Source of the DNA: Chitinophagales bacterium | GTDB lineage: Bacteria > Bacteroidota > Bacteroidia > Chitinophagales > UBA2359 | Length of the DNA stretch: 56,964 nucleotides | Direction: 5' to 3' | Assembly (NCBI GenBank): GCA_020630635.1 | Contig: JAHDBB010000001.1 | Span: 1-56,964, forward strand | In this document: positions 6,139 through 56,926 of the stretch, piece after piece | How the letters are laid out: the number at the start of each line of letters is the position of its first letter | Position numbering within the stretch: the first letter of the stretch is position 1 | Position numbers and translations under genes: made by a program | The notes under the pieces: model-generated | Told to the model about the DNA's origin: nothing | The model's database searches: none | The model's input: the letters and a program-made list of their open reading frames with translations, nothing else

Positions 6139-6362
6139 TCACTACGGATTCATACAAGAGGAGTAAACAGTATGCAAATGAAATAATGTTGAGTGCAGCT
6201 CAAAAATAAACTATTGTAATTTTAATTGCAAGTTTATTTATAATTTTATTTACAATCTTATAAAATATTTATAGAAAATTCCGGCTATTTTTATTTCTAC
6301 AGTTATTTTTTACTAATTTTAGAGCGACAAAACAAACACAGAATATTTTTGCGGAATTGGTA

Positions 6363-6465
6363 TATCTTTGTGCCAAATCTGTAAATTTATTAACATGGAA
6401 GTCGTTTCTCACTTTGTCCAGTCTGTGTCTGGGTGTCGCATCGTGGGGGCGGCTTTCTCCATTTT
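6363..6465 (+). promoter_or_regulatory. Bacteroidota-type -7 promoter box plus a conserved structured 5' leader (copy A)
   Basis: TATCTTTG (6363-6370) fits TAnnTTTG. The following ~95 nt are nearly identical to the reverse complement of 23551-23663. The central hairpin CCAG..CTGG is replaced there by CCGT..ACGG. Confidence 0.6.
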
Positions 6466-6469
6466 ATGA
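6395..6469 (+). CDS. Possible 24-codon upstream ORF within the leader (MEVVSHFVQSVSGCRIVGAAFSIL)
   Basis: The ATG sits in the conserved core. Its stop TGA overlaps the downstream start (ATGA). A homologous 23-codon ORF is in leader copy B. Confidence 0.25.
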   Translation: MEVVSHFVQSVSGCRIVGAAFSIL

Positions 6470-6801
6470 GTACCATGTTGAAACAAAATGATTTAAAAGC
6501 GAATGACACTAGCTTAGTAGTAACTTACAATGAAGGCAAAGGGAAAGACAGTTACTTGATTGAACGATTAGCACCTTTGAGCTATGATCAATTAAAGAAA
6601 GACTTTGAAACCAACACTTTCCTATTGTTTGAGACTATGGACGCAAAGACATTATCAAATGCATTGCTCCAAAAGGATGCACTAGAAGCCATTGTGAGGG
6701 GTGGCATTGATGAAGAATTAATACATGAGTTGGTACGGCTGCAATTGCTGTTCGATATGCTGCGAACTTCTGAACAGTCAGCAGAATTATTGAGGGAATA
6801 G
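6466..6801 (+). CDS. Helical ~111-aa protein, paralog of 23221-23550; function unknown
   Basis: Alignable with the 109-aa protein (LSYDQLKKDF / MSYEDLKHEF; LVRLQLLFDMLRTSE / LVYLQLLYDLLSTAD). The track's GTG start at 6433 lies in the conserved leader, so ATG 6466 is preferred. Confidence 0.7.
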   Translation: MSTMLKQNDLKANDTSLVVTYNEGKGKDSYLIERLAPLSYDQLKKDFETNTFLLFETMDAKTLSNALLQKDALEAIVRGGIDEELIHELVRLQLLFDMLRTSEQSAELLRE

Positions 6802-6824
6802 ATTTATTGGCTTAAAATGAGAAA

Positions 6825-6859
6825 AGGCATCTGGGGGTTTTCCTAGATGCCTTTTTTTT
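6825..6859 (+). terminator. Rho-independent terminator
   Basis: AGGCATCT(12 nt)AGATGCCT followed by TTTTTTTT. Confidence 0.75.
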
Positions 6860-7000: not shown

Positions 7001-7582
7001 TTAAATCAATTTCCATCCATCATTAAATTGCTGCAAAGAAATACCATTATTTTTCCCATTTTCCATTTCAGAAATAGCTATTCCTATCCTGGATAAATTA
7101 GCATAATTGAAATCAAAAAAATCATTCCTTCCAATACCTGTTTTCCTAGACACATAATTAATATAGGCTTCCTGATCCGTAGCAGACCAACGTTTAATCA
7201 ATCCGTTTAAGTTTTTCAGGTTGTGCTTGTAATAATAGGTGTTCAATGTTTTTATCATTGCCCTAGTGCCATAAGCGAGGCAAATAAATTGCTCAAAGGT
7301 GCCATCAGTATTATTACTTTCAGGAACTTTGCCCAGCCAATCATTGGCCGCTTCTATCTTAATATTTCCAACATTGTTATTTCTCCAGCCACGTTTTAAG
7401 CCAAATCGACCTAAGTAAGATTCACAAGCAGTTTCTGTTGATTCTGGAAGGTTGGGTATGATTGGGGGTAGGGTAGGGTTAAGGGGTTTTGACCTCCTTT
7501 TGTTCTCGATCAGGAAGAGAAAAAGAAGCGAAATGGACAACAAAAAGTAAACATAAATATAATTGAATTTCATTGCTACCAA
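7001..7582 (-). CDS. Membrane-anchored protein, possibly cell-wall-acting (family not recognised)
   Basis: N-terminal TM YIYVYFLLSISLLFLFLI, Pro-rich linker PLNPTLPPIIPNLP, then a globular domain (GWRNNNVGNIK). Translationally coupled to the two peptidase-like genes upstream. Confidence 0.6.
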   Translation of the reverse strand: MVAMKFNYIYVYFLLSISLLFLFLIENKRRSKPLNPTLPPIIPNLPESTETACESYLGRFGLKRGWRNNNVGNIKIEAANDWLGKVPESNNTDGTFEQFICLAYGTRAMIKTLNTYYYKHNLKNLNGLIKRWSATDQEAYINYVSRKTGIGRNDFFDFNYANLSRIGIAISEMENGKNNGISLQQFNDGWKLI

Positions 7583-8169
7583 CGTCTTACTGGACCAATA
7601 TCATAATGGATAAAGGTATTATACTTGCTCAATCCACCGTCTTTGATTTTTCCGCTTTTAATTAATCTGTTTATCGTAGCCCACAAATCATCTAGGCTCA
7701 ATCCCTTCGCTTTTATATCGGCCGCTTGTCCGCACATGTGGCGGCTTTGCTTGGCACCTCCTGCATTTTCATTGTGCATAGGGGTACGATAACCAGAATT
7801 AACGATTATAGGAACGCCTATTGTATCCCGTATAATCTGTAACTCATTCATTAGTTGCTGTATATTGCCACGAATAGAGGTAGGTGGTGCAGTTCCCTTA
7901 GAATTAAATTCTGATAGCTTGAAATTCTTTGTAAATGCATCTGGTGCGTAGTTCAATGGACAGAAATCAGGAACATTGTCACTTCCTATTGGTGTAGGAC
8001 TTGGAGTAGGGTTAGGAATCGGTGGTGTACTTGGATCAGGTGTATCTGTCTCATTATACTCATTTTCCTGGTTAATTACTTGACTATTTTTAAGCAATAC
8101 CAATACAGCCAAGAGAATCAAGGACAGGAAAAAGGTGGTCAATATAATAATAATGTCGGAGCTTTTCAT
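7576..8169 (-). CDS. Membrane-anchored peptidase M15-type zinc metallopeptidase (putative peptidoglycan hydrolase)
   Basis: N-terminal TM, Pro-rich linker TPDPSTPPIPNPTPSPTP, then SGYRTP, SRHMCGQAAD (SxHxxGxAxD motif) and FIHYD (third His ligand). Confidence 0.75.
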   Translation of the reverse strand: MKSSDIIIILTTFFLSLILLAVLVLLKNSQVINQENEYNETDTPDPSTPPIPNPTPSPTPIGSDNVPDFCPLNYAPDAFTKNFKLSEFNSKGTAPPTSIRGNIQQLMNELQIIRDTIGVPIIVNSGYRTPMHNENAGGAKQSRHMCGQAADIKAKGLSLDDLWATINRLIKSGKIKDGGLSKYNTFIHYDIGPVRRW

Positions 8170-8837
8170 ATCATCACATTTCGACTCTGAAATACATCAT
8201 AATATACGACTGTAGAATTATAGCCAATCCCTCCAGCAATCACTTCGCCACGTAACTGCATTTCTTTTACCACTTGGTATAATTCAAGTGGCGTAATAGT
8301 GTCACTATAGAAGGTACAAGCTCCACCACATGTATGATTCCTTTCGCCTCCCTCCAGCTCGTAATTTTCATAACTCAAATAGCCTGTTTCGATCCTTAAA
8401 GGCAAAGTGTAAACTGGCCCTGGAAAAGCTTGATTTACACCTGTTCTAATCTTCTGCATTTGAGCCATTAATAAATTGAGATTGCCACGCAATGCCTTTG
8501 GTGGCAGCTTGCCAGACATATCCTTAAATTCAGAAGACTTAAAATTTTTCTGATTCTGGAATGAGTTGGCATGACTAGGCGTACACCAAGTAGGTACCAG
8601 ATTGTCAATATTAGCTGGAGGAGCTGGTGGCGTTGCTGGTGGCGTTGGTGTTTGTCCAGGTGTATTATTGGGTGTAGGTAGATCAGGAGTTTCTGGAACG
8701 CCTGGCGTATTGCTGCCCAAAAGAAATTCTTTGAAGGTCTTACCACTAAATAACCAAGCCGTAGCAATGCCGATAAAGGCAAGAGCTAGGAATGATGTAA
8801 ATATAATTGCTACTGAACTACTATTGTTATTGGTCAT
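8166..8837 (-). CDS. Membrane-anchored M15-like paralog with a degenerate metal site
   Basis: Same architecture (TM, linker TPPATPPAPP) and collinear motifs, but NHTCGGACT has T in place of the Asp ligand and VVYYD has Y in place of His. Confidence 0.65.
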   Translation of the reverse strand: MTNNNSSSVAIIFTSFLALAFIGIATAWLFSGKTFKEFLLGSNTPGVPETPDLPTPNNTPGQTPTPPATPPAPPANIDNLVPTWCTPSHANSFQNQKNFKSSEFKDMSGKLPPKALRGNLNLLMAQMQKIRTGVNQAFPGPVYTLPLRIETGYLSYENYELEGGERNHTCGGACTFYSDTITPLELYQVVKEMQLRGEVIAGGIGYNSTVVYYDVFQSRNVMI

Positions 8838-8845
8838 GGCTTGTT

Positions 8846-9199
8846 TTATGGTGTGTAGTGATGCACGAACACAGCCCCATTTGTTGCATCTAGTTCGCTT
8901 ATCTTACTGGTTACATAATACCTAGAACTGTCATTCCTGTTGTCTTGCCATGAATGCGAAAAGCCTTTAAGTAACCCTATGAACTGACTGCTGTCCTTGC
9001 TTTTCCACATAACAACCCCAGACAAGACAGTAAAACTATATTGCTGTACTCCTACAGGAATATCATACTTACTACCTTCGATAATAGTATCTATGATTGC
9101 TCCAGCGTCTTTTTGCTGTGGCTCCTTTGCACAAATTTCGATACAAGGAACCGTCTGTCCTTGATCATTACAGGTAAATCCAGGAGGTAAGTTATTCAT
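8846..9199 (-). CDS. Hypothetical protein (117 aa)
   Basis: ORF in a tight operon, with an 8-nt overlap with the upstream gene. No motif recognised. Confidence 0.6.
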   Translation of the reverse strand: MNNLPPGFTCNDQGQTVPCIEICAKEPQQKDAGAIIDTIIEGSKYDIPVGVQQYSFTVLSGVVMWKSKDSSQFIGLLKGFSHSWQDNRNDSSRYYVTSKISELDATNGAVFVHHYTP

Positions 9200-10100
9200 C
9201 TTGCATCAACATTAATTGTATGATCTGGTTAGTGGCTTGGTTTAGGTTTTTTCCTGGCGTTTGTCCTACAGAAATTAAGAAGATATTTAGTTCCTCTAAT
9301 GGAAAATTTTTCAATTCTTTTTTAGGCAAATCCAACCAAAAAAATACCTCATTAATTTTACGCTTATCATCAATCATTAACTGGTTGTGATAAGCGTAAA
9401 ATTTTAGTATTTCTTCTGATTCATTTTGTCTCAAAAATGCTCTATTAGTTAAGTTTCTACTAGTAGATAATTTTGAGTTATTACTAGTGTTGGTACATTT
9501 TTGAGCGTCATTTGAATCAGCTCCGTTATTCCCAAAAGTTGCATAGGGAAATAATGGAGCCGTTACCGTATTGGTGCTAGTGTAGAATGTGGTATAGGTG
9601 CCTGTTCCTGCTGTTGTCTCGATCTGGAACTCAATCTGATTACTAGTATTAATAAGCAATCTTAGCCTTTGCCCACTAGTTAGATTTACGCCACTAGTGT
9701 AAGGAGCCGCCCACGTATTTTCGTAAGCTCTTACACCTGTATTAGCGTAAGAATAAACGGCAAAGTCTGCATTATTCCAGCTAGTGGAACCAGTAGGATT
9801 GTAAGCTAATCCCACTACTTGCCTAATCGCACTAACAGACCAACTAAAACTATCACCTGGATTAGCTAAGGCATTACTATTGTCGTAAGCTCCACTATTC
9901 CAATTGCCTGTATTATTGATCTTAGTAGCGTTGTTTCCACTAGTAGAAACGTTGGCATTGTTGGCAGTCCAAGCAATATTGATGCATTGCTCTTGCGGCT
10001 CCGTTGTTGGAATGCCGCAATAGAATGTTAATGATTGTGCCTGGAGATATTGGCAGCACAGAACACCTAATAATATTGATATGAGAAACTTAAATTTCAA
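9192..10100 (-). CDS. Secreted Asn/Thr/Ser-rich protein (302 aa)
   Basis: Signal peptide MKFKFLISILLGVLCCQYLQAQ. The N-terminal two thirds are beta-rich (WN/YxN repeats). Confidence 0.65.
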   Translation of the reverse strand: MKFKFLISILLGVLCCQYLQAQSLTFYCGIPTTEPQEQCINIAWTANNANVSTSGNNATKINNTGNWNSGAYDNSNALANPGDSFSWSVSAIRQVVGLAYNPTGSTSWNNADFAVYSYANTGVRAYENTWAAPYTSGVNLTSGQRLRLLINTSNQIEFQIETTAGTGTYTTFYTSTNTVTAPLFPYATFGNNGADSNDAQKCTNTSNNSKLSTSRNLTNRAFLRQNESEEILKFYAYHNQLMIDDKRKINEVFFWLDLPKKELKNFPLEELNIFLISVGQTPGKNLNQATNQIIQLMLMQDE

Positions 10101-10109
10101 TACAAAAAG

Positions 10110-10649
10110 TTAATAGGTTGTAAATGTGATCAATGCACAGCCTTGCAATGCAAACACCTCCGTTGTTTGTGGCGTGTCGTAAAAGTGCCTATATCCATTT
10201 CTAGGATCTGCATTTGCAATGGTTGCAGTTACAGGTAGTTGGTGCTGTGGGCTACTAGGACTTTTCACTGACACCATACCCTTTATTGTAGTAATAGAAT
10301 AAGACAAAACATTAGCAGGAATTGTAAAATTTGCACCTTCTATTAAGTAGCTATGAAAGCCGCTTTGTATGGTGTCGGCTGGTGCTTCGTATGATGGACA
10401 TGCGTACAGATTAACACCTTTGGGCAGTTCATCTGTAATATTTCCCGTACTAGTATCCTCATATAGTACTGTGCCTTCCCCTGTCTTAGGGTCGGTTTCG
10501 TAATGAATGATGTAGACCACCCCTAGACTGTCACACTTGCAAGCGATCACCTCAGAATCATCTAAGGAAAAGTTACTGCCACTTTGGGCATTTGCCATAC
10601 CAATTGACAAGGCAAAAAAGGAAAAGATAAGAAATAAATACTTTTTCAT
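10110..10649 (-). CDS. Secreted protein (179 aa)
   Basis: Signal peptide MKKYLFLIFSFFALSIGMANAQ. Beta-rich mature part. Confidence 0.65.
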   Translation of the reverse strand: MKKYLFLIFSFFALSIGMANAQSGSNFSLDDSEVIACKCDSLGVVYIIHYETDPKTGEGTVLYEDTSTGNITDELPKGVNLYACPSYEAPADTIQSGFHSYLIEGANFTIPANVLSYSITTIKGMVSVKSPSSPQHQLPVTATIANADPRNGYRHFYDTPQTTEVFALQGCALITFTTY

Positions 10650-10665
10650 ATTGTGTATAAATAGA

Positions 10666-11094
10666 TTATGGGATTAAAATTCTTTTATGATTGTGTGCAT
10701 CTGCACGGAAATCTATACCGTGCTTTTTCAATTCATCAACTACATCTTGACTTAAAAGCACATCAGTATAAATATCATAGTCACTAACTTGCTTTCTACT
10801 TTTGAATCTCTGCCTAACATACCTTATATATCTAGGGGTACGCACATCAACATAAGAACCTGTAACCCTTGAACCACAAGCCCACACTTTAGAATTTTCA
10901 TTAAACTGTTTAATAATAGCTTTAGCGAGCTGAAATCTTTCCTTTGTTTTTTTGGGGAACTTTGAAAAGGAATCAACTTTTCTAGTTTCCTTAATGACAT
11001 TCCACACATTCCTATAAGCTATCATTTCAGGAGACTCTTGCCATTTTTTTCTATCACTTAAATTGCGAATAAATAAAGCCCTAACGCCTAACAT
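10666..11094 (-). CDS. Basic 142-aa protein with a possible Pol-beta-type nucleotidyltransferase motif
   Basis: CGSRVTGS ... SDYDIY resembles the hG[GS]...DxD signature, but the spacer is unusually long (~25 aa). Weak call. Confidence 0.5.
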   Translation of the reverse strand: MLGVRALFIRNLSDRKKWQESPEMIAYRNVWNVIKETRKVDSFSKFPKKTKERFQLAKAIIKQFNENSKVWACGSRVTGSYVDVRTPRYIRYVRQRFKSRKQVSDYDIYTDVLLSQDVVDELKKHGIDFRADAHNHKRILIP

Positions 11095-13499
11095 ATGATT
11101 GAATTTATATTACTGACATGCCCGACGGTTACGGCACCTTCTTGACAGCCAGGAATGTAAACTGGTACACCCAAACGCACACGAATATTAACGCATTGAC
11201 CAGGCGCAAGCGAACCCTCCCAAATATTAGTATTAGGGTCATAATTACCAATACTAGCGGTGTAGGTAGTTCCAGTAGGTATATATTGTGCGCCGTTAAG
11301 GATTAATATTACATCGACTTGAAACTGTGTGATTATTTCTGTCGTATCATTGCATACTATACTTACCCACTCGTCTACAAAACAATCATCACCAGACATT
11401 GCATTATTAATACTCAAGCCACAATTACTGCCATTATTAGGGATACAGTATAATGTTTTGGTGTCTATTACTTGGCTGCTTCCATCTACTTCGGGAAAAT
11501 AACTAGTGCCAAAAGCCCCACCTTCAACCCAATTAACCGCACCACTATTCACATTTCTATTTTCATAGTATAATAGATCCTCCCATTTATAGGTTGGTAC
11601 AAGCTGATTTACTCCATCAATAATCCTGTTACTGGAAACCACTATAGAGAACTCCCAACAAGCAGGCAACCAAAACCGAAAGGTTTGTTTTTCTTCAGTA
11701 TTTCCTGTAGTAGATACAGGAACACCAGGAATAGCTGTTGCATAATCTAACATGTCAGTATTAGCAAGTATATGAGTCAGCACATCAGACATTGAAGAGA
11801 CATAAGGACTACCACCAATATTGATCAAGTTATGCACTAGGTACATAGGATTGGTTACTAACTCATTGCCATTTAGCACGAATGATGTAACAGCCATGTT
11901 ATTGACTGTTAATTCACTAATTCTAGTACTATTTATGTCGATATAATTTTCAACTAGCTTGAAATTGCCATCACATGGAGCCTCTTCCTTGCATTTGTCA
12001 AGCCCGAAATTCATTTCTACAGGATCACAACCATCGACCGTAACCGTAATTGTAGCATCACCATTACCTGAAACAGTAACTGTATTACTGTCTAATTCAC
12101 CACTAACAAGCGTTAGACCTTCGCCCAAAGTCCATTGATAAGAATCAACCGTAAGCGTACTATTACTAATCACAACTGAAATAGTACAGCTACCATCACC
12201 ATTATCAGTAACAGAAGAAATAATCATGTAATCACACTCATCCCAGCACAATTCCCCTTGCACCGTATCACAGCCACAATCAGCCTTGAAATAAGCGCAA
12301 CCGCCTAAGCCTGCGTCAATCGCATTAGACCACAGCCAATTATTGGGAGCAGTCGGTACTGGTTGGAGCGTTAAATCATTGTTTCCGTCTGCATTAACTC
12401 CAGTTGCCCAACCAATATTGTTTAGACACCATAACTTTTCAGGTATTGCCGCCAAGTCAACCATTAAGATATAAGAATCTGTTCCAGCTCCGTAAGGCTG
12501 CCTAATAATAGGCACCTCGAAAGTGCTAGGCTCACATGGCACACCGCAAGGTTCTACGGTATCATCACATGTTTCACATCTGTCTAACGGCACCTCGAAA
12601 AGAGGCACGTCTAGCGTAAGTGTGCTGCCATCAGCAATACAAGTAACATCAATAGTACAATCAAGCACACCACAACCATCAATTGTGACCTTAATCGTGT
12701 TGCTATCAATCAGTTCACTTGTAGTAACACCTATGGTTTCATCATCTTCACTTTCACAACTGAAATTCGCATCAACGAAATTGTGACTAGTACTATTAAG
12801 ATTCAAGAGCCAATGGCCTCTAGTTCCACCGTCATACAATCCACTACTAGAAACCACATAACCTAGATAACTATCATCACAATCTAAGATGGTATAGTTT
12901 GCCGTGTCCAAGTACACTTGATATATGACTGTTCTGCCATCACTAGAAACGAATTTCACACGGAATGTAGGAGCTAGTTCAATTAGACTGCCTACACTCT
13001 GATTAATAACTAGAGTATTACCAGTCCCAACAGTAGCCCATGCATCAGCAGGACTATTACTAACATACCAGGTACCACTACCAGCATAACCTGATCCACC
13101 ATCAAGCGGAACAAAAGAGAATTCATGAACGCAAAATTGCTCTAGTGCATTACTCGTGTTCCCTCCTATTGCTGATTGTCCCATAAATATACCTAATGGT
13201 GCTGCTGTTTCACTTCCTTGCTCACCAGGCACCCATTCCCAAGAAAGGGCATTTTCTCCAGGAACACATTCACTAAGTACACATTCACCATCGACCAACT
13301 CATAACCATCAGAACAACCTGTAGGGCCGCCAATAGGAACACAATCTTTGCCAACTTGCTCGAATCCAGGAGGACAGCAACTATCATCGGGAACACAATC
13401 TTTGCCAACTTGCTCGAATCCAGGAGGACATTCGCAAGCGTTAACTTGATCACCTGTCCCATTATCATTATCTATTGGATTGTTGTTGTCGTCGTTCAT
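11088..13499 (-). CDS. Large Cys-rich protein (803 aa), putative virion spike/adhesin
   Basis: About 37 Cys and no signal peptide. N-terminal duplicated CPPGFEQVGKDCVP, Ig-like segment (TISVVISNSTLTVDSYQWTLGEG...TITVTVDGC), DUF11-like C-terminus (GNYDPNTNIWEGSLAPGQCVNIRVRLGV). Confidence 0.75.
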   Translation of the reverse strand: MNDDNNNPIDNDNGTGDQVNACECPPGFEQVGKDCVPDDSCCPPGFEQVGKDCVPIGGPTGCSDGYELVDGECVLSECVPGENALSWEWVPGEQGSETAAPLGIFMGQSAIGGNTSNALEQFCVHEFSFVPLDGGSGYAGSGTWYVSNSPADAWATVGTGNTLVINQSVGSLIELAPTFRVKFVSSDGRTVIYQVYLDTANYTILDCDDSYLGYVVSSSGLYDGGTRGHWLLNLNSTSHNFVDANFSCESEDDETIGVTTSELIDSNTIKVTIDGCGVLDCTIDVTCIADGSTLTLDVPLFEVPLDRCETCDDTVEPCGVPCEPSTFEVPIIRQPYGAGTDSYILMVDLAAIPEKLWCLNNIGWATGVNADGNNDLTLQPVPTAPNNWLWSNAIDAGLGGCAYFKADCGCDTVQGELCWDECDYMIISSVTDNGDGSCTISVVISNSTLTVDSYQWTLGEGLTLVSGELDSNTVTVSGNGDATITVTVDGCDPVEMNFGLDKCKEEAPCDGNFKLVENYIDINSTRISELTVNNMAVTSFVLNGNELVTNPMYLVHNLINIGGSPYVSSMSDVLTHILANTDMLDYATAIPGVPVSTTGNTEEKQTFRFWLPACWEFSIVVSSNRIIDGVNQLVPTYKWEDLLYYENRNVNSGAVNWVEGGAFGTSYFPEVDGSSQVIDTKTLYCIPNNGSNCGLSINNAMSGDDCFVDEWVSIVCNDTTEIITQFQVDVILILNGAQYIPTGTTYTASIGNYDPNTNIWEGSLAPGQCVNIRVRLGVPVYIPGCQEGAVTVGHVSNINSIIC
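13336..13430. repeat. Perfect 41-nt direct repeat with 54-nt period inside the 803-aa gene
   Basis: GGAACACAATCTTTGCCAACTTGCTCGAATCCAGGAGGACA at 13336-13376 and 13390-13430. Encodes CPPGFEQVGKDCVP twice. Confidence 0.9.
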
Positions 13500-15901
13500 T
13501 TTTTCGATTGAGATTTGATTTGTGTTTCGGGTTCAGCTCCAGAGTTTGGAGTCAAGTCAACGTCATTGTTTTTTCCTTGATCTTTTCCATCTTCTGGACA
13601 ATTGGACTTACTTAACCAAGCAAGCGCAACAGAATCAAAAGGGACTGTATTACCTCCGACATTAGTAATGTAATCAGCAATAATTTCATCAATAGAAAAT
13701 CCGTCAATACCAACCACATCTAAGCCCTGTAACTCGAACCGTGAAAAAGCTCCAGCACTTGGCCAGAAATTGCCGAAGGTCGCATTAACAGCGGTAACAG
13801 CAGGTAATGACAACAATCCTAATACTGTATTAATGGCTGTCAATAATTCAGCCTCGAAGTTAGGATTTATCTGAAGATAACATTCTCCAGGCGCACCTGT
13901 AGGAGCTTGCGAGAACATATTAACGGGTGTTGCTATTCCGTATGTACTACCATCCACGACAATAGCCGTGACCTGACCTCCTGGAAACGATCCACTTTCA
14001 GAATAACAGCTATTTTGTGCCAAACCCAGCAGTCTAGGTACGGTTGGATCGACAAAAGAGAATGTACAATCTTCATTCCCTGTACCACCTGAACCACCAT
14101 CTGGACATTCAGGAAAGCAAGCCCCGTAATCCTCATTACAATAAAATCCAGGAGGACAACTCCCATCAGGGCCGCACGGTGGGTAGCAATACCCACCAAT
14201 ACAAATCCAACCCTCTGGACAACCCTCAGAGCAAGGAGGGAGGCAAATTCCATTCACACATAACCAACCAGGAGGGCATTCACTAGTATCTGAACAGATT
14301 GGAAGACAAATACCATCGACACAAATGAAACCTTCAGGACAGATACCATCTAGGCATTCTGGTAAGCAATACCCACCAACACAGACAAAACCAGGAGGAC
14401 ATTCACCATCCTCTGAACATGGAGGAAAGCAAATACCACCAATGCAAACCCAACCCTCTGGACAATCTGCATCATCGGTACAGATTGGAAGGCAGAGACC
14501 ATTGATGCAGGTATAGCCATCAGGACAATCTGCATCATCTGTGCATGTCTGGATACATTCACCAGCCACCAAAATAGAACCATCAGGACATTCTGGAACA
14601 ACATCACCTACTGTAATACAGATTTCTCCGTAGCAACACAATGGCTTCTCTGTGCATTGTGCGACATAGTAGAAACAGAACTCACCAACAAAATCACTAG
14701 GGAAATTGAATTCGATTAAGCCCGTATCATTGATACTAATATAAGCTTGGTATTCAACAGGAATTTGTTCTAATCTATAAACAGGCTTACAACAATCGGT
14801 ACCATTACAATCAAGTTGATGAGTAAACACACCAGAACAATCTTCTGGAGTATACATCAACAGATAATCTTCACAGCAATGATTCATTTCGATATTGATA
14901 ACGGAATAGCATTGCTTACCAGAATAGCATGTAGTAACGATTGTAAAGCTATCACCACCCCAAGCGCAGTCATCAGGATTATAATCCCAGCTACCATCCT
15001 CATTGATGGTAACTGTCCCTTGTGTTGGGTCTGCACCAACGGTATAGACTGGATCATGACAACAATCCCATGTACATGTTGGTGGTGGCTCTTCACTAAT
15101 TGGAGCGGCTTTGGCTCCAGGATCAGCTGTAATTGTATATGTCTGATCTCCACAGCAATTACCTACAGTTAGGCAAATATTGAAATAGCATTTAGATTTC
15201 CCACAATGGACATAGACAGGAAAACAGAGTTCACCTAAGAACTTATCTGGTGGTGTAATACTGTATGAACCATCACTATTGACAATAATACCATCAACAC
15301 TTTCATTACTTGGCTCATTATTGTCTAGTGCGCTATTACATGTGGCTGTTGTTCCTTCGCTGTGTGTTGGATCAGGAGAAAGTGAGTAAGTCACCATTCC
15401 ATTACAACAATCACCAAAAGGATTGCAATCTAATTGCCCTGTAATTGTCTCATTTCCTGCTACATCAATGTATAGGTCATCACATCCATCACATCTTCCA
15501 ACCTCCCAACATACAAATCTATAAGTATTGTAAGCAGCAATGTCACATTCAATAAGGATAATAGCACAATCTTGCCCGATAAACCCAGCATTAGGTGTAT
15601 AAACCAAATTACCTTCAACAACTTCTAATGTGCCATTACTCACATTGCTTAAAATATTGTACTGCACATTATTACAGCAATCATCTAAGCTACAATCACT
15701 AATAATATCACCTTCCCAACTGCCATCAATAGGAATAGCAAGCTCTAATGTATCACACAACTTAGTATAGCCATCTGGAATGATGGACTTATCATCTAAG
15801 GCACTTGCGCCAGACCCTGCACCAATTGCAGTATTGTTGCCACTTGGAGGATTACTAGTACCGTAACCATATGTATTACCTGAAGGGAAAAACCCAAACA
15901 T
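13496..15901 (-). CDS. Very Cys-rich protein (801 aa): adhesin-type modules plus EGF-like repeats; putative virion spike/receptor-binding protein
   Basis: About 71 Cys by my count and no signal peptide or TM. Four ~95-aa modules with DCC...Y.P..F.G..C motifs, then eight CPxGxxCxxGxCxPxC repeats. ATGA overlap with the next gene. Confidence 0.8.
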   Translation of the reverse strand: MFGFFPSGNTYGYGTSNPPSGNNTAIGAGSGASALDDKSIIPDGYTKLCDTLELAIPIDGSWEGDIISDCSLDDCCNNVQYNILSNVSNGTLEVVEGNLVYTPNAGFIGQDCAIILIECDIAAYNTYRFVCWEVGRCDGCDDLYIDVAGNETITGQLDCNPFGDCCNGMVTYSLSPDPTHSEGTTATCNSALDNNEPSNESVDGIIVNSDGSYSITPPDKFLGELCFPVYVHCGKSKCYFNICLTVGNCCGDQTYTITADPGAKAAPISEEPPPTCTWDCCHDPVYTVGADPTQGTVTINEDGSWDYNPDDCAWGGDSFTIVTTCYSGKQCYSVINIEMNHCCEDYLLMYTPEDCSGVFTHQLDCNGTDCCKPVYRLEQIPVEYQAYISINDTGLIEFNFPSDFVGEFCFYYVAQCTEKPLCCYGEICITVGDVVPECPDGSILVAGECIQTCTDDADCPDGYTCINGLCLPICTDDADCPEGWVCIGGICFPPCSEDGECPPGFVCVGGYCLPECLDGICPEGFICVDGICLPICSDTSECPPGWLCVNGICLPPCSEGCPEGWICIGGYCYPPCGPDGSCPPGFYCNEDYGACFPECPDGGSGGTGNEDCTFSFVDPTVPRLLGLAQNSCYSESGSFPGGQVTAIVVDGSTYGIATPVNMFSQAPTGAPGECYLQINPNFEAELLTAINTVLGLLSLPAVTAVNATFGNFWPSAGAFSRFELQGLDVVGIDGFSIDEIIADYITNVGGNTVPFDSVALAWLSKSNCPEDGKDQGKNNDVDLTPNSGAEPETQIKSQSKK
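14102..14590 (-). repeat. In-frame array of ~8 EGF-like Cys repeats (~57-63-nt period)
   Basis: aa 438-600: TDDADCPDGYTCINGLCLPIC / TDDADCPEGWVCIGGICFPPC / SEDGECPPGFVCVGGYCLPEC / ... The periodicity also generates spurious ORFs in other frames. Confidence 0.85.
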
Positions 15902-15904
15902 ATT

Positions 15905-16291
15905 TTATTTTTTTACAACCAAATAAATTAAAACAATGAATAGCAAAAGAAAAAAGACGGCACCAACCAGCACTAAAGGGCTTATGGCTCCGTCGTCATT
16001 GTTTCCATTGTTATTGTTTCCGTCATTGTTTCCATTGTCATTATTAGGATTGTCATTACCATTCAACACACCATCAATAACCTCGTCAATTTGACCAGGC
16101 AAGACAATAGGAACAGGTGCGCCACCAACTAGATCAGGATCAGGAAAGTCTGCTGGTAAAATCTCTGTTGCTGGATTGACGATAGCGCAATACTGAAGAC
16201 AATCCTCCCTAAATTTTCGCCAATTAGAAAAGAAAGGATACCTAGCCCTACACTTGCTCGCACAATTACGCCTAGTTTGTCTGTCGCTCAT
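15905..16291 (-). CDS. Tail-anchored membrane protein with an Asn/Asp low-complexity tract
   Basis: N-terminal Cys/Arg-rich segment, NDNPNNDNGNNDGNNNNGNNDD tract, C-terminal TM LVLVGAVFFLLLFIVLIYLVV. Confidence 0.65.
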   Translation of the reverse strand: MSDRQTRRNCASKCRARYPFFSNWRKFREDCLQYCAIVNPATEILPADFPDPDLVGGAPVPIVLPGQIDEVIDGVLNGNDNPNNDNGNNDGNNNNGNNDDGAISPLVLVGAVFFLLLFIVLIYLVVKK

Positions 16292-16313
16292 TTTACCAAC
16301 TTTATAGTTTCTC

Positions 16314-16445
16314 TTATAACCTTTGCAAATGCGCCTTTATATCTTGTTTGTAGACAAGATCAAGCATTTCACCCCTCCAAGCAGCATCTACACGACCGCC
16401 TTCTTTTGGAGTAGTGTCAAATAATTTCTTGGGAAATCTAATCAT
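16314..16445 (-). CDS. Small ORF (43 aa, MIRFPKKLFDTTPKEGGRVDAAWRGEMLDLVYKQDIKAHLQRL)
   Basis: Translated by hand; below the track cutoff. Its ATG overlaps the upstream TAA by 1 nt, and it fills an otherwise empty gap in a tightly packed operon. Confidence 0.4.
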   Translation of the reverse strand: MIRFPKKLFDTTPKEGGRVDAAWRGEMLDLVYKQDIKAHLQRL

Positions 16446-34530: not shown

Positions 34531-34754
34531 TCACTACGGATTCATACAAGAGGAGTAAACAGTATGCAAATGAAATAATGTTGAGTGCAGCTCAAAAATA
34601 AACTATTGTAATTTTAATTGCAAGTTTATTTATAATTTTATTTACAATCTTATAAAATATTTATAGAAAATTCCGGCTATTTTTATTTCTACAGTTATTT
34701 TTTACTAATTTTAGAGCGACAAAACAAACACAGAATATTTTTGCGGAATTGGTA

Positions 34755-34857
34755 TATCTTTGTGCCAAATCTGTAAATTTATTAACATGGAAGTCGTTTC
34801 TCACTTTGTCCAGTCTGTGTCTGGGTGTCGCATCGTGGGGGCGGCTTTCTCCATTTT
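34755..34857 (+). promoter_or_regulatory. Promoter box plus conserved leader A, copy 2
   Basis: Identical to 6363-6465. Confidence 0.6.
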
Positions 34858-34861
34858 ATGA
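34787..34861 (+). CDS. Possible 24-codon uORF, copy 2
   Basis: Identical to 6395-6469. Confidence 0.25.
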   Translation: MEVVSHFVQSVSGCRIVGAAFSIL

Positions 34862-35193
34862 GTACCATGTTGAAACAAAATGATTTAAAAGCGAATGACA
34901 CTAGCTTAGTAGTAACTTACAATGAAGGCAAAGGGAAAGACAGTTACTTGATTGAACGATTAGCACCTTTGAGCTATGATCAATTAAAGAAAGACTTTGA
35001 AACCAACACTTTCCTATTGTTTGAGACTATGGACGCAAAGACATTATCAAATGCATTGCTCCAAAAGGATGCACTAGAAGCCATTGTGAGGGGTGGCATT
35101 GATGAAGAATTAATACATGAGTTGGTACGGCTGCAATTGCTGTTCGATATGCTGCGAACTTCTGAACAGTCAGCAGAATTATTGAGGGAATAG
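34858..35193 (+). CDS. Helical ~111-aa paralog A, copy 2
   Basis: Identical translation to 6466-6801. Confidence 0.7.
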   Translation: MSTMLKQNDLKANDTSLVVTYNEGKGKDSYLIERLAPLSYDQLKKDFETNTFLLFETMDAKTLSNALLQKDALEAIVRGGIDEELIHELVRLQLLFDMLRTSEQSAELLRE

Positions 35194-51612: not shown

Positions 51613-51942
51613 TTATCCCTTCAAATTTTTGGCGGAATAGTCCGCAGTAGAAAGCAGATCATACAGCAATTGCAAATAGACCAAATCTTTTAAATAATCA
51701 TCTTCAACACCTTTACTATTCAATAGTTTCCTCACATCCTGACTAAGCAACACACGTGCTAAGACTTTACTATTAAGATTCGTAAAAAGATCATCTAAAC
51801 GGCAGCCAAATTCATGCTTTAAATCTTCATAACTCATTTGTGTAAGATGCCTAAGCAAATAATCAGGCTGTGTTGGATCGCTTTGATCCGCTCTTGTGGT
51901 TGGGCTAGTGTTTTTAGCCTCATTAATGTTTGTGATTGACAT
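51613..51942 (-). CDS. Helical 109-aa paralog B, copy 2
   Basis: Identical translation to 23221-23550. Confidence 0.7.
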   Translation of the reverse strand: MSITNINEAKNTSPTTRADQSDPTQPDYLLRHLTQMSYEDLKHEFGCRLDDLFTNLNSKVLARVLLSQDVRKLLNSKGVEDDYLKDLVYLQLLYDLLSTADYSAKNLKG

Positions 51943-52055
51943 GGTTCTCTAAATGGAGAAAGCCGCCCCCACAATGCAACACCCGTAGAAACAACGGACA
52001 AAGTGAGAAACGACTTCCATGTTAATAATAACTTTATAGAGTTGGCATAAAGATA
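51943..52055 (-). promoter_or_regulatory. Promoter-like box plus conserved leader B, copy 2
   Basis: Identical to 23551-23663. Confidence 0.6.
51949..52020 (-). CDS. Possible 23-codon uORF, copy 2
   Basis: Identical to 23557-23628. Confidence 0.25.
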   Translation of the reverse strand: MEVVSHFVRCFYGCCIVGAAFSI

Positions 52056-52173
52056 CACCAATCCCATAAAATTACAGTTTCTAAATTTGTTGGCACTAAT
52101 TTAATAAGATTTTTATAAAGGAGGGTAAAAAAGGGAAGTTTTTTTTTTGTTTTTTCAGCAACTTCTTTTTTGG

Positions 52174-56909: not shown

Positions 56910-56926
56910 ATCCAGTATGATCCACC
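56910..56926. repeat. attR core
   Basis: ATCCAGTATGATCCACC followed by non-element flank CCTCCTCAAATAACATCC. Confidence 0.9.

Follow-up and report, generated by a model that had tools for sequence, protein, structure and literature searches.

The question raised by contig JAHDBB010000001.1 of a Chitinophagales bacterium (assembly GCA_020630635.1; positions 1–56,964, the whole stretch analysed, hereafter the window) is what lies in front of two small orphan genes of an integrase-bearing element, each of which follows a leader that recurs, nearly unchanged and in inverted orientation, ahead of the other. Leader A lies at 6363–6474 on the plus strand and leader B at 23551–23690 on the minus strand. 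Judged from these two copies only, the leader is probably a new RNA control element. As read from the sequence, it is real, sharply bounded, strand-specific and structured, and is present in two diverged copies in which a three-part compensation is unusually clean. It is also larger than first described and different in architecture, and in its putative function it is a new form of a known logic of leader-RNA control, in an orphan Bacteroidota element.

The similarity of the two leaders is far beyond chance, sharply bounded and conserved at the nucleotide level. A repeat search returns the inverted arms 6387–6464 and 23559–23636 (78 nt, 88% identity), and the near-identical leaders that the original prediction had placed in the 6363 region and at 23551–23663 are as described in sequence and coordinates. 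The identical core is real but longer than the 30 nt first given: A and B are identical over a 33-nt block (6387–6419) and over a second block of 22 nt (6444–6465). Differences concentrate in the 15-nt apical hairpin at 6418–6432, and this divergent block, CCAG-TCTGTGT-CTGG in A and CCGT-TGTTTCT-ACGG in B (23605–23591), holds two double-sided compensatory pairs, as had been noted. Identity is 84.5% across the long second hairpin (HP2) and 71% across a 5′ box and first hairpin (HP1) that precede it, compared with 54.7% in the upstream flank, 59.7% in the coding sequences, 53% in the downstream flank and 52% in a shuffled-sequence control. The conserved structured unit, made up of the 5′ box, HP1 and HP2, starts at ~6336 and not at 6363, so that the leader would measure ~150 nt, not the ~100 nt first proposed, if HP1 and the box are RNA features. 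Leader A and its gene also occur, with identical sequence, at positions 1–130 of Logan contig SRR14415273_730597 (run SRR14415273, an independent short-read assembly); this contig begins exactly at window position 6390, as would be predicted if the assembly graph is broken by an identical stretch of 30 or more nt. The Logan collection has no record of the paralogue B protein. An invertible segment or shufflon was rejected as an explanation of the paired leaders, given two inward-reading arms with equivalent promoters, and so was the template/variable repeat of a diversity-generating retroelement, since a reverse transcriptase is lacking and the differences show no adenine specificity.

Sense-strand RNAs started at 6328 (A) and 23695 (B) fold independently into the same two-hairpin architecture, HP1 followed by HP2, with energies of −45.1 (A) and −47.1 (B) kcal/mol (z = −3.6 and −4.8; 0 of 200 shuffles folded as well); the antisense strands reach only −23.5 (A) and −21.1 (B) kcal/mol. 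HP1 of A (6342–6391, plus strand) has core stems 6348–6355/6378–6385 and 6357–6364/6369–6376 and a UCUU loop at 6365–6368, and taken alone amounts to −19.3 kcal/mol in the sense and −2.9 kcal/mol in the antisense orientation; HP1 of B (23636–23683, minus strand) amounts to −18.8 and −4.4 kcal/mol, respectively. All non-Watson–Crick pairs in the leader structure are G·U on the sense strand. HP2 of A (6394–6477, plus strand) is closed by a helix between CAUGG (6394–6398) and CCAUG (6473–6477), so that in the predicted fold the start region of an upstream open reading frame (uORF) is paired with the start region of the main gene. The main stem of HP2 (6399–6412/6443–6455) is G·U-rich, four of its nine pairs being G·U; HP2 also includes a small 3′ hairpin at 6457–6470, and the apical hairpin (6418–6432, plus strand; CCAG-UCUGUGU-CUGG) has a 4-bp stem, two pairs of which covary with B, and a 7-nt loop at 6422–6428. 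HP2 of B (23548–23629, minus strand) includes the apical hairpin at 23605–23591 and a 23-codon uORF at 23628–23557. The long imperfect, G·U-rich stem with its apical hairpin, which the original prediction had drawn by eye, is also what minimum-free-energy folding gives for both copies (z = −2.2 to −3.2). The tail after this stem reads UUUUAUGAG in A and UUAGAGAA in B. There is no U-tract after the stem in copy B, which makes an attenuator by intrinsic termination unlikely (an attenuator was among the roles first suggested); a terminator scan was empty in both leaders, and we rejected this candidate.

The anatomy evident in the aligned copies is a single-stranded 7-nt box, HP1, and a long HP2 whose predicted 7-nt loop is complementary to the box. 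The 5′ box of A, ACACAGA (6336–6342, plus strand), is a perfect Watson–Crick complement of the apical loop UCUGUGU (6422–6428), and that of B, UAGAAAC (23685–23691, minus strand), is complementary to GUUUCUA (23600–23594), which comprises the loop and the first 3′ stem base. Both pairings share the same columns in an unsupervised MAFFT alignment, and all three of the loop differences between the copies are matched by complementary changes in the box. Duplexes between each box and its cognate hairpin have predicted energies of −11.6 and −8.1 kcal/mol, compared with −4.6 and −6.0 kcal/mol for non-cognate combinations. Across the two leaders, double-sided changes affect six pairs (three box–loop, two apical-stem and one HP1 pair), one-sided, G·U-compatible changes affect a further four, and pairing falls to 38–51% if partners are slid by one to three columns; the remaining two HP2 substitutions fall in internal loops. 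If the 5′ arm at the uORF is blocked, as it would be by a translating ribosome, the minimum-free-energy fold of copy A switches to one with the box–loop helix. Searches of the element with up to three mismatches over a 15-mer gave no further copy of either box, and no trans target for either loop turned up elsewhere in it. Separately, an 8-nt island, ACACTAGC (~6507–6514 and ~23511–23518), is kept in the otherwise diverged N-terminal coding regions (codons ~11–13) and has the potential to pair with the GGGUGU located just on the 3′ side of the apical hairpin.

The reading that we favour, tentatively and at somewhat less than an even chance, is that each copy is a ~150-nt sense-strand structured regulatory leader in front of a monocistronic orphan gene, in which the box–loop pairing switches HP2 and thereby controls uORF-coupled translation gene by gene. 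In the closed state HP2 would be intact, with both start codons paired. A ribosome initiating on the 24-codon uORF, or another event, would melt the lower HP2 stem, and in the resulting open state the apical hairpin could dock on its cognate 5′ box, either within the same RNA or in trans on a processed fragment consisting of the box and HP1. Docking would hold the leader in an alternative conformer and so set the amount of translation that reaches the main open reading frame (ORF), the start of which lies 5–6 nt past the uORF stop and might be used by termination–reinitiation; the effect could be either activation or repression. Box and loop sequences are not the same in A and B, and each unit would therefore be under its own control. 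In favour of this reading are the restriction of conservation to box, HP1 and HP2, the common fold of the two copies, the compensated changes, the preference of each box for its own hairpin, the sense-strand bias, the low-lying box–loop conformer, the terminators that end both units and the precedent of IncI1/IncB plasmids (PMC8053102).

Several points weigh against this reading or limit the evidence for it. When HP1 and HP2 are both completely formed, the box lies ~25 bp from the loop, so that docking would need either the opening of HP2 or a trans arrangement; in favour of the reading, constrained folding puts the box–loop conformer only 4.6 (A) and 5.9 (B) kcal/mol above the minimum. The probability that both copies have a complement of at least 7 nt is 1.8e-4 when the 66 nt upstream of HP1 are shuffled, and 1.5e-5 when both complements must also lie within 3 nt of the same register, values on which some discount is due as the match was noticed by eye and after the fact. 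All pairs of a 50-pair structure laid on the A/B alignment are standard in both copies, a result that is partly built in because the pair list was derived from the same two sequences; random mutants with the same substitution spectrum were therefore simulated as a second check, and the apical stem was kept by 2.4% of mutants of the 15-nt block, the HP1 energy by 4–14% of HP1 mutants and the HP2 energy by 9% of HP2 mutants. The overall covariation signal is good for two sequences, yet it comes from n = 2 only. Leader A is the most plus-strand-favoured of 2,837 folding windows in a whole-element scan and leader B the ninth on the minus-favoured side, but sense/antisense energy differences are broad across the element (standard deviation 9.3 kcal/mol), so that strand asymmetry is supportive only and does not settle the model. 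The best promoter match sits inside HP1, and an RNA begun at the start predicted from it (~6375) would contain neither the box nor HP1; no consensus promoter precedes the box, only boxes with 7/8 positions at 6314 and 23711. Finally, recent gene conversion could account just as well for the complete lack of change in both HP2 arms.

Gene conversion could be extended to the leader as a whole: a promoter-leader cassette without dedicated function, recently copied or homogenised between the inverted copies, would carry its hairpins and uORF incidentally. The 33- and 22-nt blocks are 100% identical even at third codon positions and at stem positions that are able to covary, and an open frame of the length of the uORF is expected in ~50% of cases. 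We consider this account quite improbable, as it cannot explain why the differences cluster in paired or complementary positions and all keep pairing, or why the box and the start codon are precisely where identity ends.

The same box and loop can also be regarded as DNA. They would then be inverted 7-bp sites, at about −36 and +50 and separated by 87–90 bp, recognised by a DNA-binding protein specific to each unit (the 108-aa paralogues themselves being candidates) that co-evolved with its sites, and the HP1 palindrome would be an operator over the −7 box. Promoter-flanking inverted repeats that differ between paralogous units fit autoregulators of diverged specificity, the proteins are small and all-helical, and the palindromes are real in DNA too. 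Yet no DNA-binding domain was detected in the proteins by Pfam, PHROGs, PDB profile search or Foldseek, the spacing of the sites differs by 3 bp between the copies, so that their helical phase is changed, the mismatches in the palindrome are all of the G·T type and on one strand only, and the covarying stem around the downstream site would have no role; control at the DNA level is therefore improbable, if less so than a cassette without function. A single-strand priming or cruciform DNA signal was rejected as well, as the pairing depends on G·U.

Where transcription starts bears directly on these readings. Promoter-like boxes across the element are of the Bacteroidota TAnnTTTG type, and the box of this type that the original prediction had placed at 6363 (TATCTTTG, 6363–6370, plus strand) is a perfect Bacteroidota −7 consensus in A; however, it straddles the loop of the conserved HP1, whose changes are of RNA type (one double compensatory and four G·U-compatible) and whose loop and closing pairs contain it, and the 5′ box, 27 nt further upstream, covaries with the apical loop. 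The counterpart in the HP1 loop of B is TATCTTTA (23663–23656, minus strand; 7/8 positions), and A has a second perfect −7 box, TATTTTTG, at 6344–6351 (plus strand). The Bacteroidota −7 box occupies positions −12 to −5 (PMC9723704), from which starts at ~6375 (A) and ~23651 (B) are predicted for TATCTTTG and TATCTTTA; these precede the uORF AUG by 20 and 23 nt, a typical Bacteroidota spacing, the commonest 5′ untranslated region (UTR) in Bacteroides being 23 nt long (PMC7366714) and most Bacteroidota 5′ UTRs ~23–32 nt. The box of a Bacteroidota sigma-A promoter usually lies 20–60 nt ahead of a start codon.

A simpler model can be built on these starts, in which TATCTTTG and TATCTTTA are the sole promoters, the mRNA runs from ~6375 or ~23651 with a 20–23-nt, A/U-rich 5′ UTR, a translated uORF containing HP2 and a coupled main ORF, and the 5′ arm of HP1 and the box are kept upstream as promoter or operator DNA. 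The consensus is perfect in copy A, the spacing from box to uORF AUG fits both the −12 to −5 rule (PMC9723704) and the 23-nt 5′ UTR (PMC7366714), other promoters of the element are alike (TATATTTG at 22241 and 22688), and HP2 folds on its own (z = −2.6 and −3.2). We regard this model as a serious possibility, if still an unlikely one: the box of copy B is without the conserved G, and the model leaves unexplained the box–loop covariation, the G·U-type compensation in HP1 and the advantage of ~15 kcal/mol of sense over antisense HP1. If HP1 and the box are RNA features, as the favoured switch requires, transcription must start upstream of 6336, and the covariation of box and HP1 argues for such RNAs. 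Weak candidate −7-like boxes, each with 7/8 positions, lie upstream of either leader: TAATTTTA at 6314–6321 (plus strand; matched to TAnnTTTG), with a start near 6326 and hence an RNA that would include the 5′ box, and TAAATTAG at 23704–23711 (minus strand). Both promoters may be used. More generally, a consensus promoter match can sit within a conserved RNA hairpin, so that promoter and RNA calls need to be weighed against each other. On the antisense strand of the leaders there is no perfect TAnnTTTG box; two boxes with one mismatch, in the TA, are found there at aligned positions (+9 to +17 of both paralogue coding sequences), TCATTTTG (6491–6484, minus strand) and AATGTTTG (23533–23540, plus strand), and would give counter-transcripts across the leaders if active.

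The uORFs translate as first stated, into 24 codons in A (MEVVSHFVQSVSGCRIVGAAFSIL; 6395–6469, plus strand, spanning both HP2 arms) and 23 codons in B (MEVVSHFVRCFYGCCIVGAAFSI; 23628–23557, minus strand). The uORF of A stops at TGA 6467–6469, with ATG codons at 6466 and 6475, and that of B at TAG 23559–23557, with the main ATG at 23550. The overlap of stop and main start in an ATGA, put forward in the original prediction, is present at 6466 in A and absent from B; the start conserved between the paralogues is ATG 6475, aligned with 23550 and 5–6 nt past the uORF stop. Translation of the uORF is plausible, given that its AUG lies in an A/U-rich stretch. An open frame of 22 codons persists in ~50% of shuffles of the same composition, so that 23–24 open codons are not significant in themselves. 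Moreover, four consecutive codons in the hairpin block are changed non-synonymously and only one substitution is synonymous, which together with the ordinary open frame places the visible constraint on the nucleic acid and not on the peptide.

It was also suggested at first that the leader might be a gene for a small hydrophobic peptide, and the 23–24-aa product could be a membrane-active or regulatory protein whose function drives the nucleotide conservation. Its AUG has a good, A/U-rich context, both ends (N-terminal MEVVSHFV and C-terminal IVGAAFSI) are identical in the two copies, and it is hydrophobic (grand average of hydropathy 1.2–1.4). However, the middle differs (QSVS in A and RCFY in B, and R and C at a further position), the single synonymous substitution gives no sign of purifying selection on the peptide, the peptide is too short for a transmembrane helix and its hydrophobic runs are interrupted, and conservation reaches 60 nt upstream of the AUG; a peptide as the selected product is thus very unlikely. 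A type I toxin–antitoxin system was rejected, as the peptide (23–24 aa, with interrupted runs) has no full transmembrane segment and no antisense promoter was found in the leaders.

Both leaders serve genes of the same family. Paralogue A (6475–6801, plus strand; alternative start 6466) encodes an all-helical orphan protein of 108 aa and paralogue B (23221–23550, minus strand) one of 109 aa, and the two are true paralogues (35% identity, E = 2e-15). Searches of Pfam, PHROGs, PDB profiles and Foldseek gave no usable match for either protein, the predicted local distance difference test score (pLDDT) of the AlphaFold2 model of protein A is 56, and a profile of A and B searched against 1.84 billion representative proteins returned only the two proteins of the window, as did a word-index search for homologues of protein A. 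Gene A is closed by a strong intrinsic terminator with an 18-bp stem and a T-run (6819–6858, plus strand) and gene B by a bidirectional terminator (23187–23204), which makes units A and B monocistronic. The genuine terminators of the element consist of GC-rich stems and runs of T5–7, unlike HP1, and HP1 as the terminator of a separate small RNA was accordingly rejected and kept only as a sub-variant.

That the leader is not a named RNA family, as originally stated, is borne out by covariance-model searches with Rfam 15 (4,227 models): at the gathering threshold, only the tRNA-Val was detected in the whole window, and at E ≤ 10 the region 6200–6600 returned two chance matches of 15–17 bits, against cut-offs of 47–55 bits. 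Rfam 15 includes models of C4/P4-type antisense RNAs. A covariance model of the leader itself scores 179.5 and 177.7 bits for the two copies and 14.2 bits for the next best match, so that no third copy was found in the element. Exact two-anchor DNA patterns of HP1 and HP2 gave nothing or GC-rich chance matches in IMG/VR, GTDB genomes and JGI metagenomes, blastn against INPHARED phages gave no leader match, and no related elements were found via the primase, the M15 peptidase or the packaging-type ATPase.

Among known systems, the leaders of plasmid rep genes come close. In IncI1/IncB plasmids, coupling to a leader peptide combined with pairing of a loop to a distal stretch is an established mechanism (PMC8053102), and the leaders of ColIb-P9 repY–repZ, pMU720 repB–repA, IncL-M and IncFII R1 (tap–repA/CopA) resemble those described here in having a short leader ORF (19–29 codons) with a stop that overlaps or abuts the regulated start, a start region buried in a stem, and a loop that pairs, here by prediction, with a distant stretch of the same leader and whose sequence sets specificity (PMC8053102). 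In A and B, in contrast, the distal partner lies 5′ of the hairpin and not beside the downstream start, no counter-transcript promoter is evident apart from the one-mismatch boxes, the regulated genes encode orphan 108-aa proteins and not replication initiators, there is no sequence similarity, and the host belongs to the Bacteroidota, which are without Shine–Dalgarno-driven initiation.

The immunity RNAs of temperate phages offer a second comparison. The CI RNA of P4 (seqA/seqB/seqC) and the c4 RNA of P1/P7 (a1/a′/a2, b1/b′/b2) are processed from their own leaders, by RNase P and PNPase, into stable small RNAs, their loop sequences match boxes on either side in the transcript, of which the downstream one overlaps the start of a coupled ORF, their boxes and loops covary between heteroimmune phages, and each is associated with a small coupled ORF (icd, eta). 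A and B share with them the position as leaders of a temperate element, the complementarity of a hairpin loop and a short box of one transcript, the compensatory changes in box and loop by which related elements become mutually independent, and a small coupled ORF. Unlike in P4 and P1, only an upstream box is present here, with no downstream target copy found at up to three mismatches over a 15-mer, there is no Rfam match, and two specificities reside in one genome, on two paralogous monocistronic genes instead of in two heteroimmune phages. The leader is not a member of either the plasmid or the P4/P1 families, as there is no model match, Rep gene, demonstrable counter-transcript or downstream box. 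These likenesses nonetheless allow a more specific version of the favoured switch, in which the units would be mutually independent RNA "lock-and-key" switches forming a two-channel decision or immunity circuit for the two orphan paralogues, with each box recognising only the apical loop of its own uORF hairpin and perhaps released as a small RNA of box and HP1. We consider this version doubtful; if true, no RNA control logic of the P4/P1 or ColIb-P9 kind would have been described in Bacteroidota before.

Lambda nutL/nutR and HK022 putL/putR are likewise pairs of near-identical structured RNAs, each with a 15-nt hairpin, that head two units of one temperate element. Processive antitermination of this kind, with leader RNAs that modify RNA polymerase to read through the terminators past the small genes, would let transcription from unit B enter the long minus-strand block (22221–7001). 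Read-through from unit A would be antisense to this late block, two plus-strand genes (22291–23159) lie between unit B and the block, each unit is a single gene ended by a strong terminator, Rfam gives no match, and the unit-specific box–loop pairs would have no role, so that this is the least probable of the accounts weighed here. Put and nut have no uORF and no box–loop complementarity.

Leader-peptide attenuation is known in Bacteroidota, with the tetQ leader of CTnDOT as an example, and shares with A and B a long structured 5′ region with a short ORF. It differs in that copy B has no terminator-like U-tract after the stem, that there is no link here to amino-acid or antibiotic sensing, and that there are two leaders whose specificity elements have diverged. 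Little has been mapped of post-transcriptional control in Bacteroidota and their phages, in which there is no Shine–Dalgarno-driven initiation and few validated cis-regulatory RNAs are known; Hfq is generally considered absent from the phylum. Structured 5′ regions have been reported in Flavobacterium (PMC9723704). If the favoured switch is true, the combination of coupled uORF, start sequestration and covarying loop and box would show that the kissing or pseudoknot logic of enterobacterial plasmids and phages arose independently in Bacteroidota, and the two naturally independent RNA pairs would be usable as regulatory parts.

The window consists of a tRNA-Val gene (66–143) followed by two tandem copies of the 28,392-bp element, at 126–28517 and 28518–56909, which are 100% identical (0 mismatches). 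The 17-nt att core ATCCAGTATGATCCACC, equal to the tRNA 3′ end, occurs three times in the window, the last at 56910–56926. Two lysogens in tandem would give this arrangement, and so would an assembly artefact that joined the excised circle to the integrated form. Because the tandem copies are identical, the four physical leaders represent just two independent sequences: leader A recurs at 34720–34869 (plus strand; +28,392, with its 78-nt arm at 34779–34856) and leader B at 51940–52089 (minus strand; +28,392, with its arm at 51951–52028). The element encodes an integrase, a PadR-like regulator, a primase-helicase, M15 peptidase/endolysin-like proteins and a small P-loop ATPase, and nearly all of its remaining proteins are without a Pfam or PHROG match. 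No PHROG match to capsid, portal or tail proteins was found anywhere in the element, and the sole terminase-family match is a weak one to the ATPase (E = 9e-5); this 206-aa, packaging-type protein (20200–20820) has no relative among 5.8 billion clustered proteins. The best relatives of the primase-helicase are cellular DnaG proteins of Chitinophagaceae (~37% identity). These relatives and the TAnnTTTG-type promoter boxes make a host in Bacteroidota most likely. The element could be a temperate virus, tailless or otherwise unclassified, or an integrative element of another kind.

A long minus-strand block of lysis- and structural-type genes spans 7001–22221; units A and B point inward and start just beyond either end of it, with the two plus-strand genes at 22291–23159 separating unit B from the block. 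The 677-nt intergenic region upstream of leader B (23700–24227) is crowded with at least eight GTTACA/TGTAAC words in direct and inverted orientation, for example at 23782–23796 and 24023–24037 (15 nt, 100%), resembles an operator or iteron field, and begins after a strong terminator (24135–24170). Within the block, a 10-nt unit, TAACCAATCG, is tandemly repeated three to four times at 19929–19999, across the start codon (19940) of ORF 19245–19940 and mostly inside the candidate ORF 19814–20029, and also resembles an iteron or binding-site array. Repeats with a period of 54–63 nt (13336–13430 and 14175–14465) lie within two ORFs of ~800 aa, 11088–13499 and 13496–15901, the latter with Big_9/cadherin-like matches; both may encode surface or host-recognition proteins with repeat modules. 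A near-perfect 50-nt palindrome, AATTTTACGCTTATCA...TGATAAGCGTAAAATT, is located at 9354–9403, inside ORF 9192–10100.

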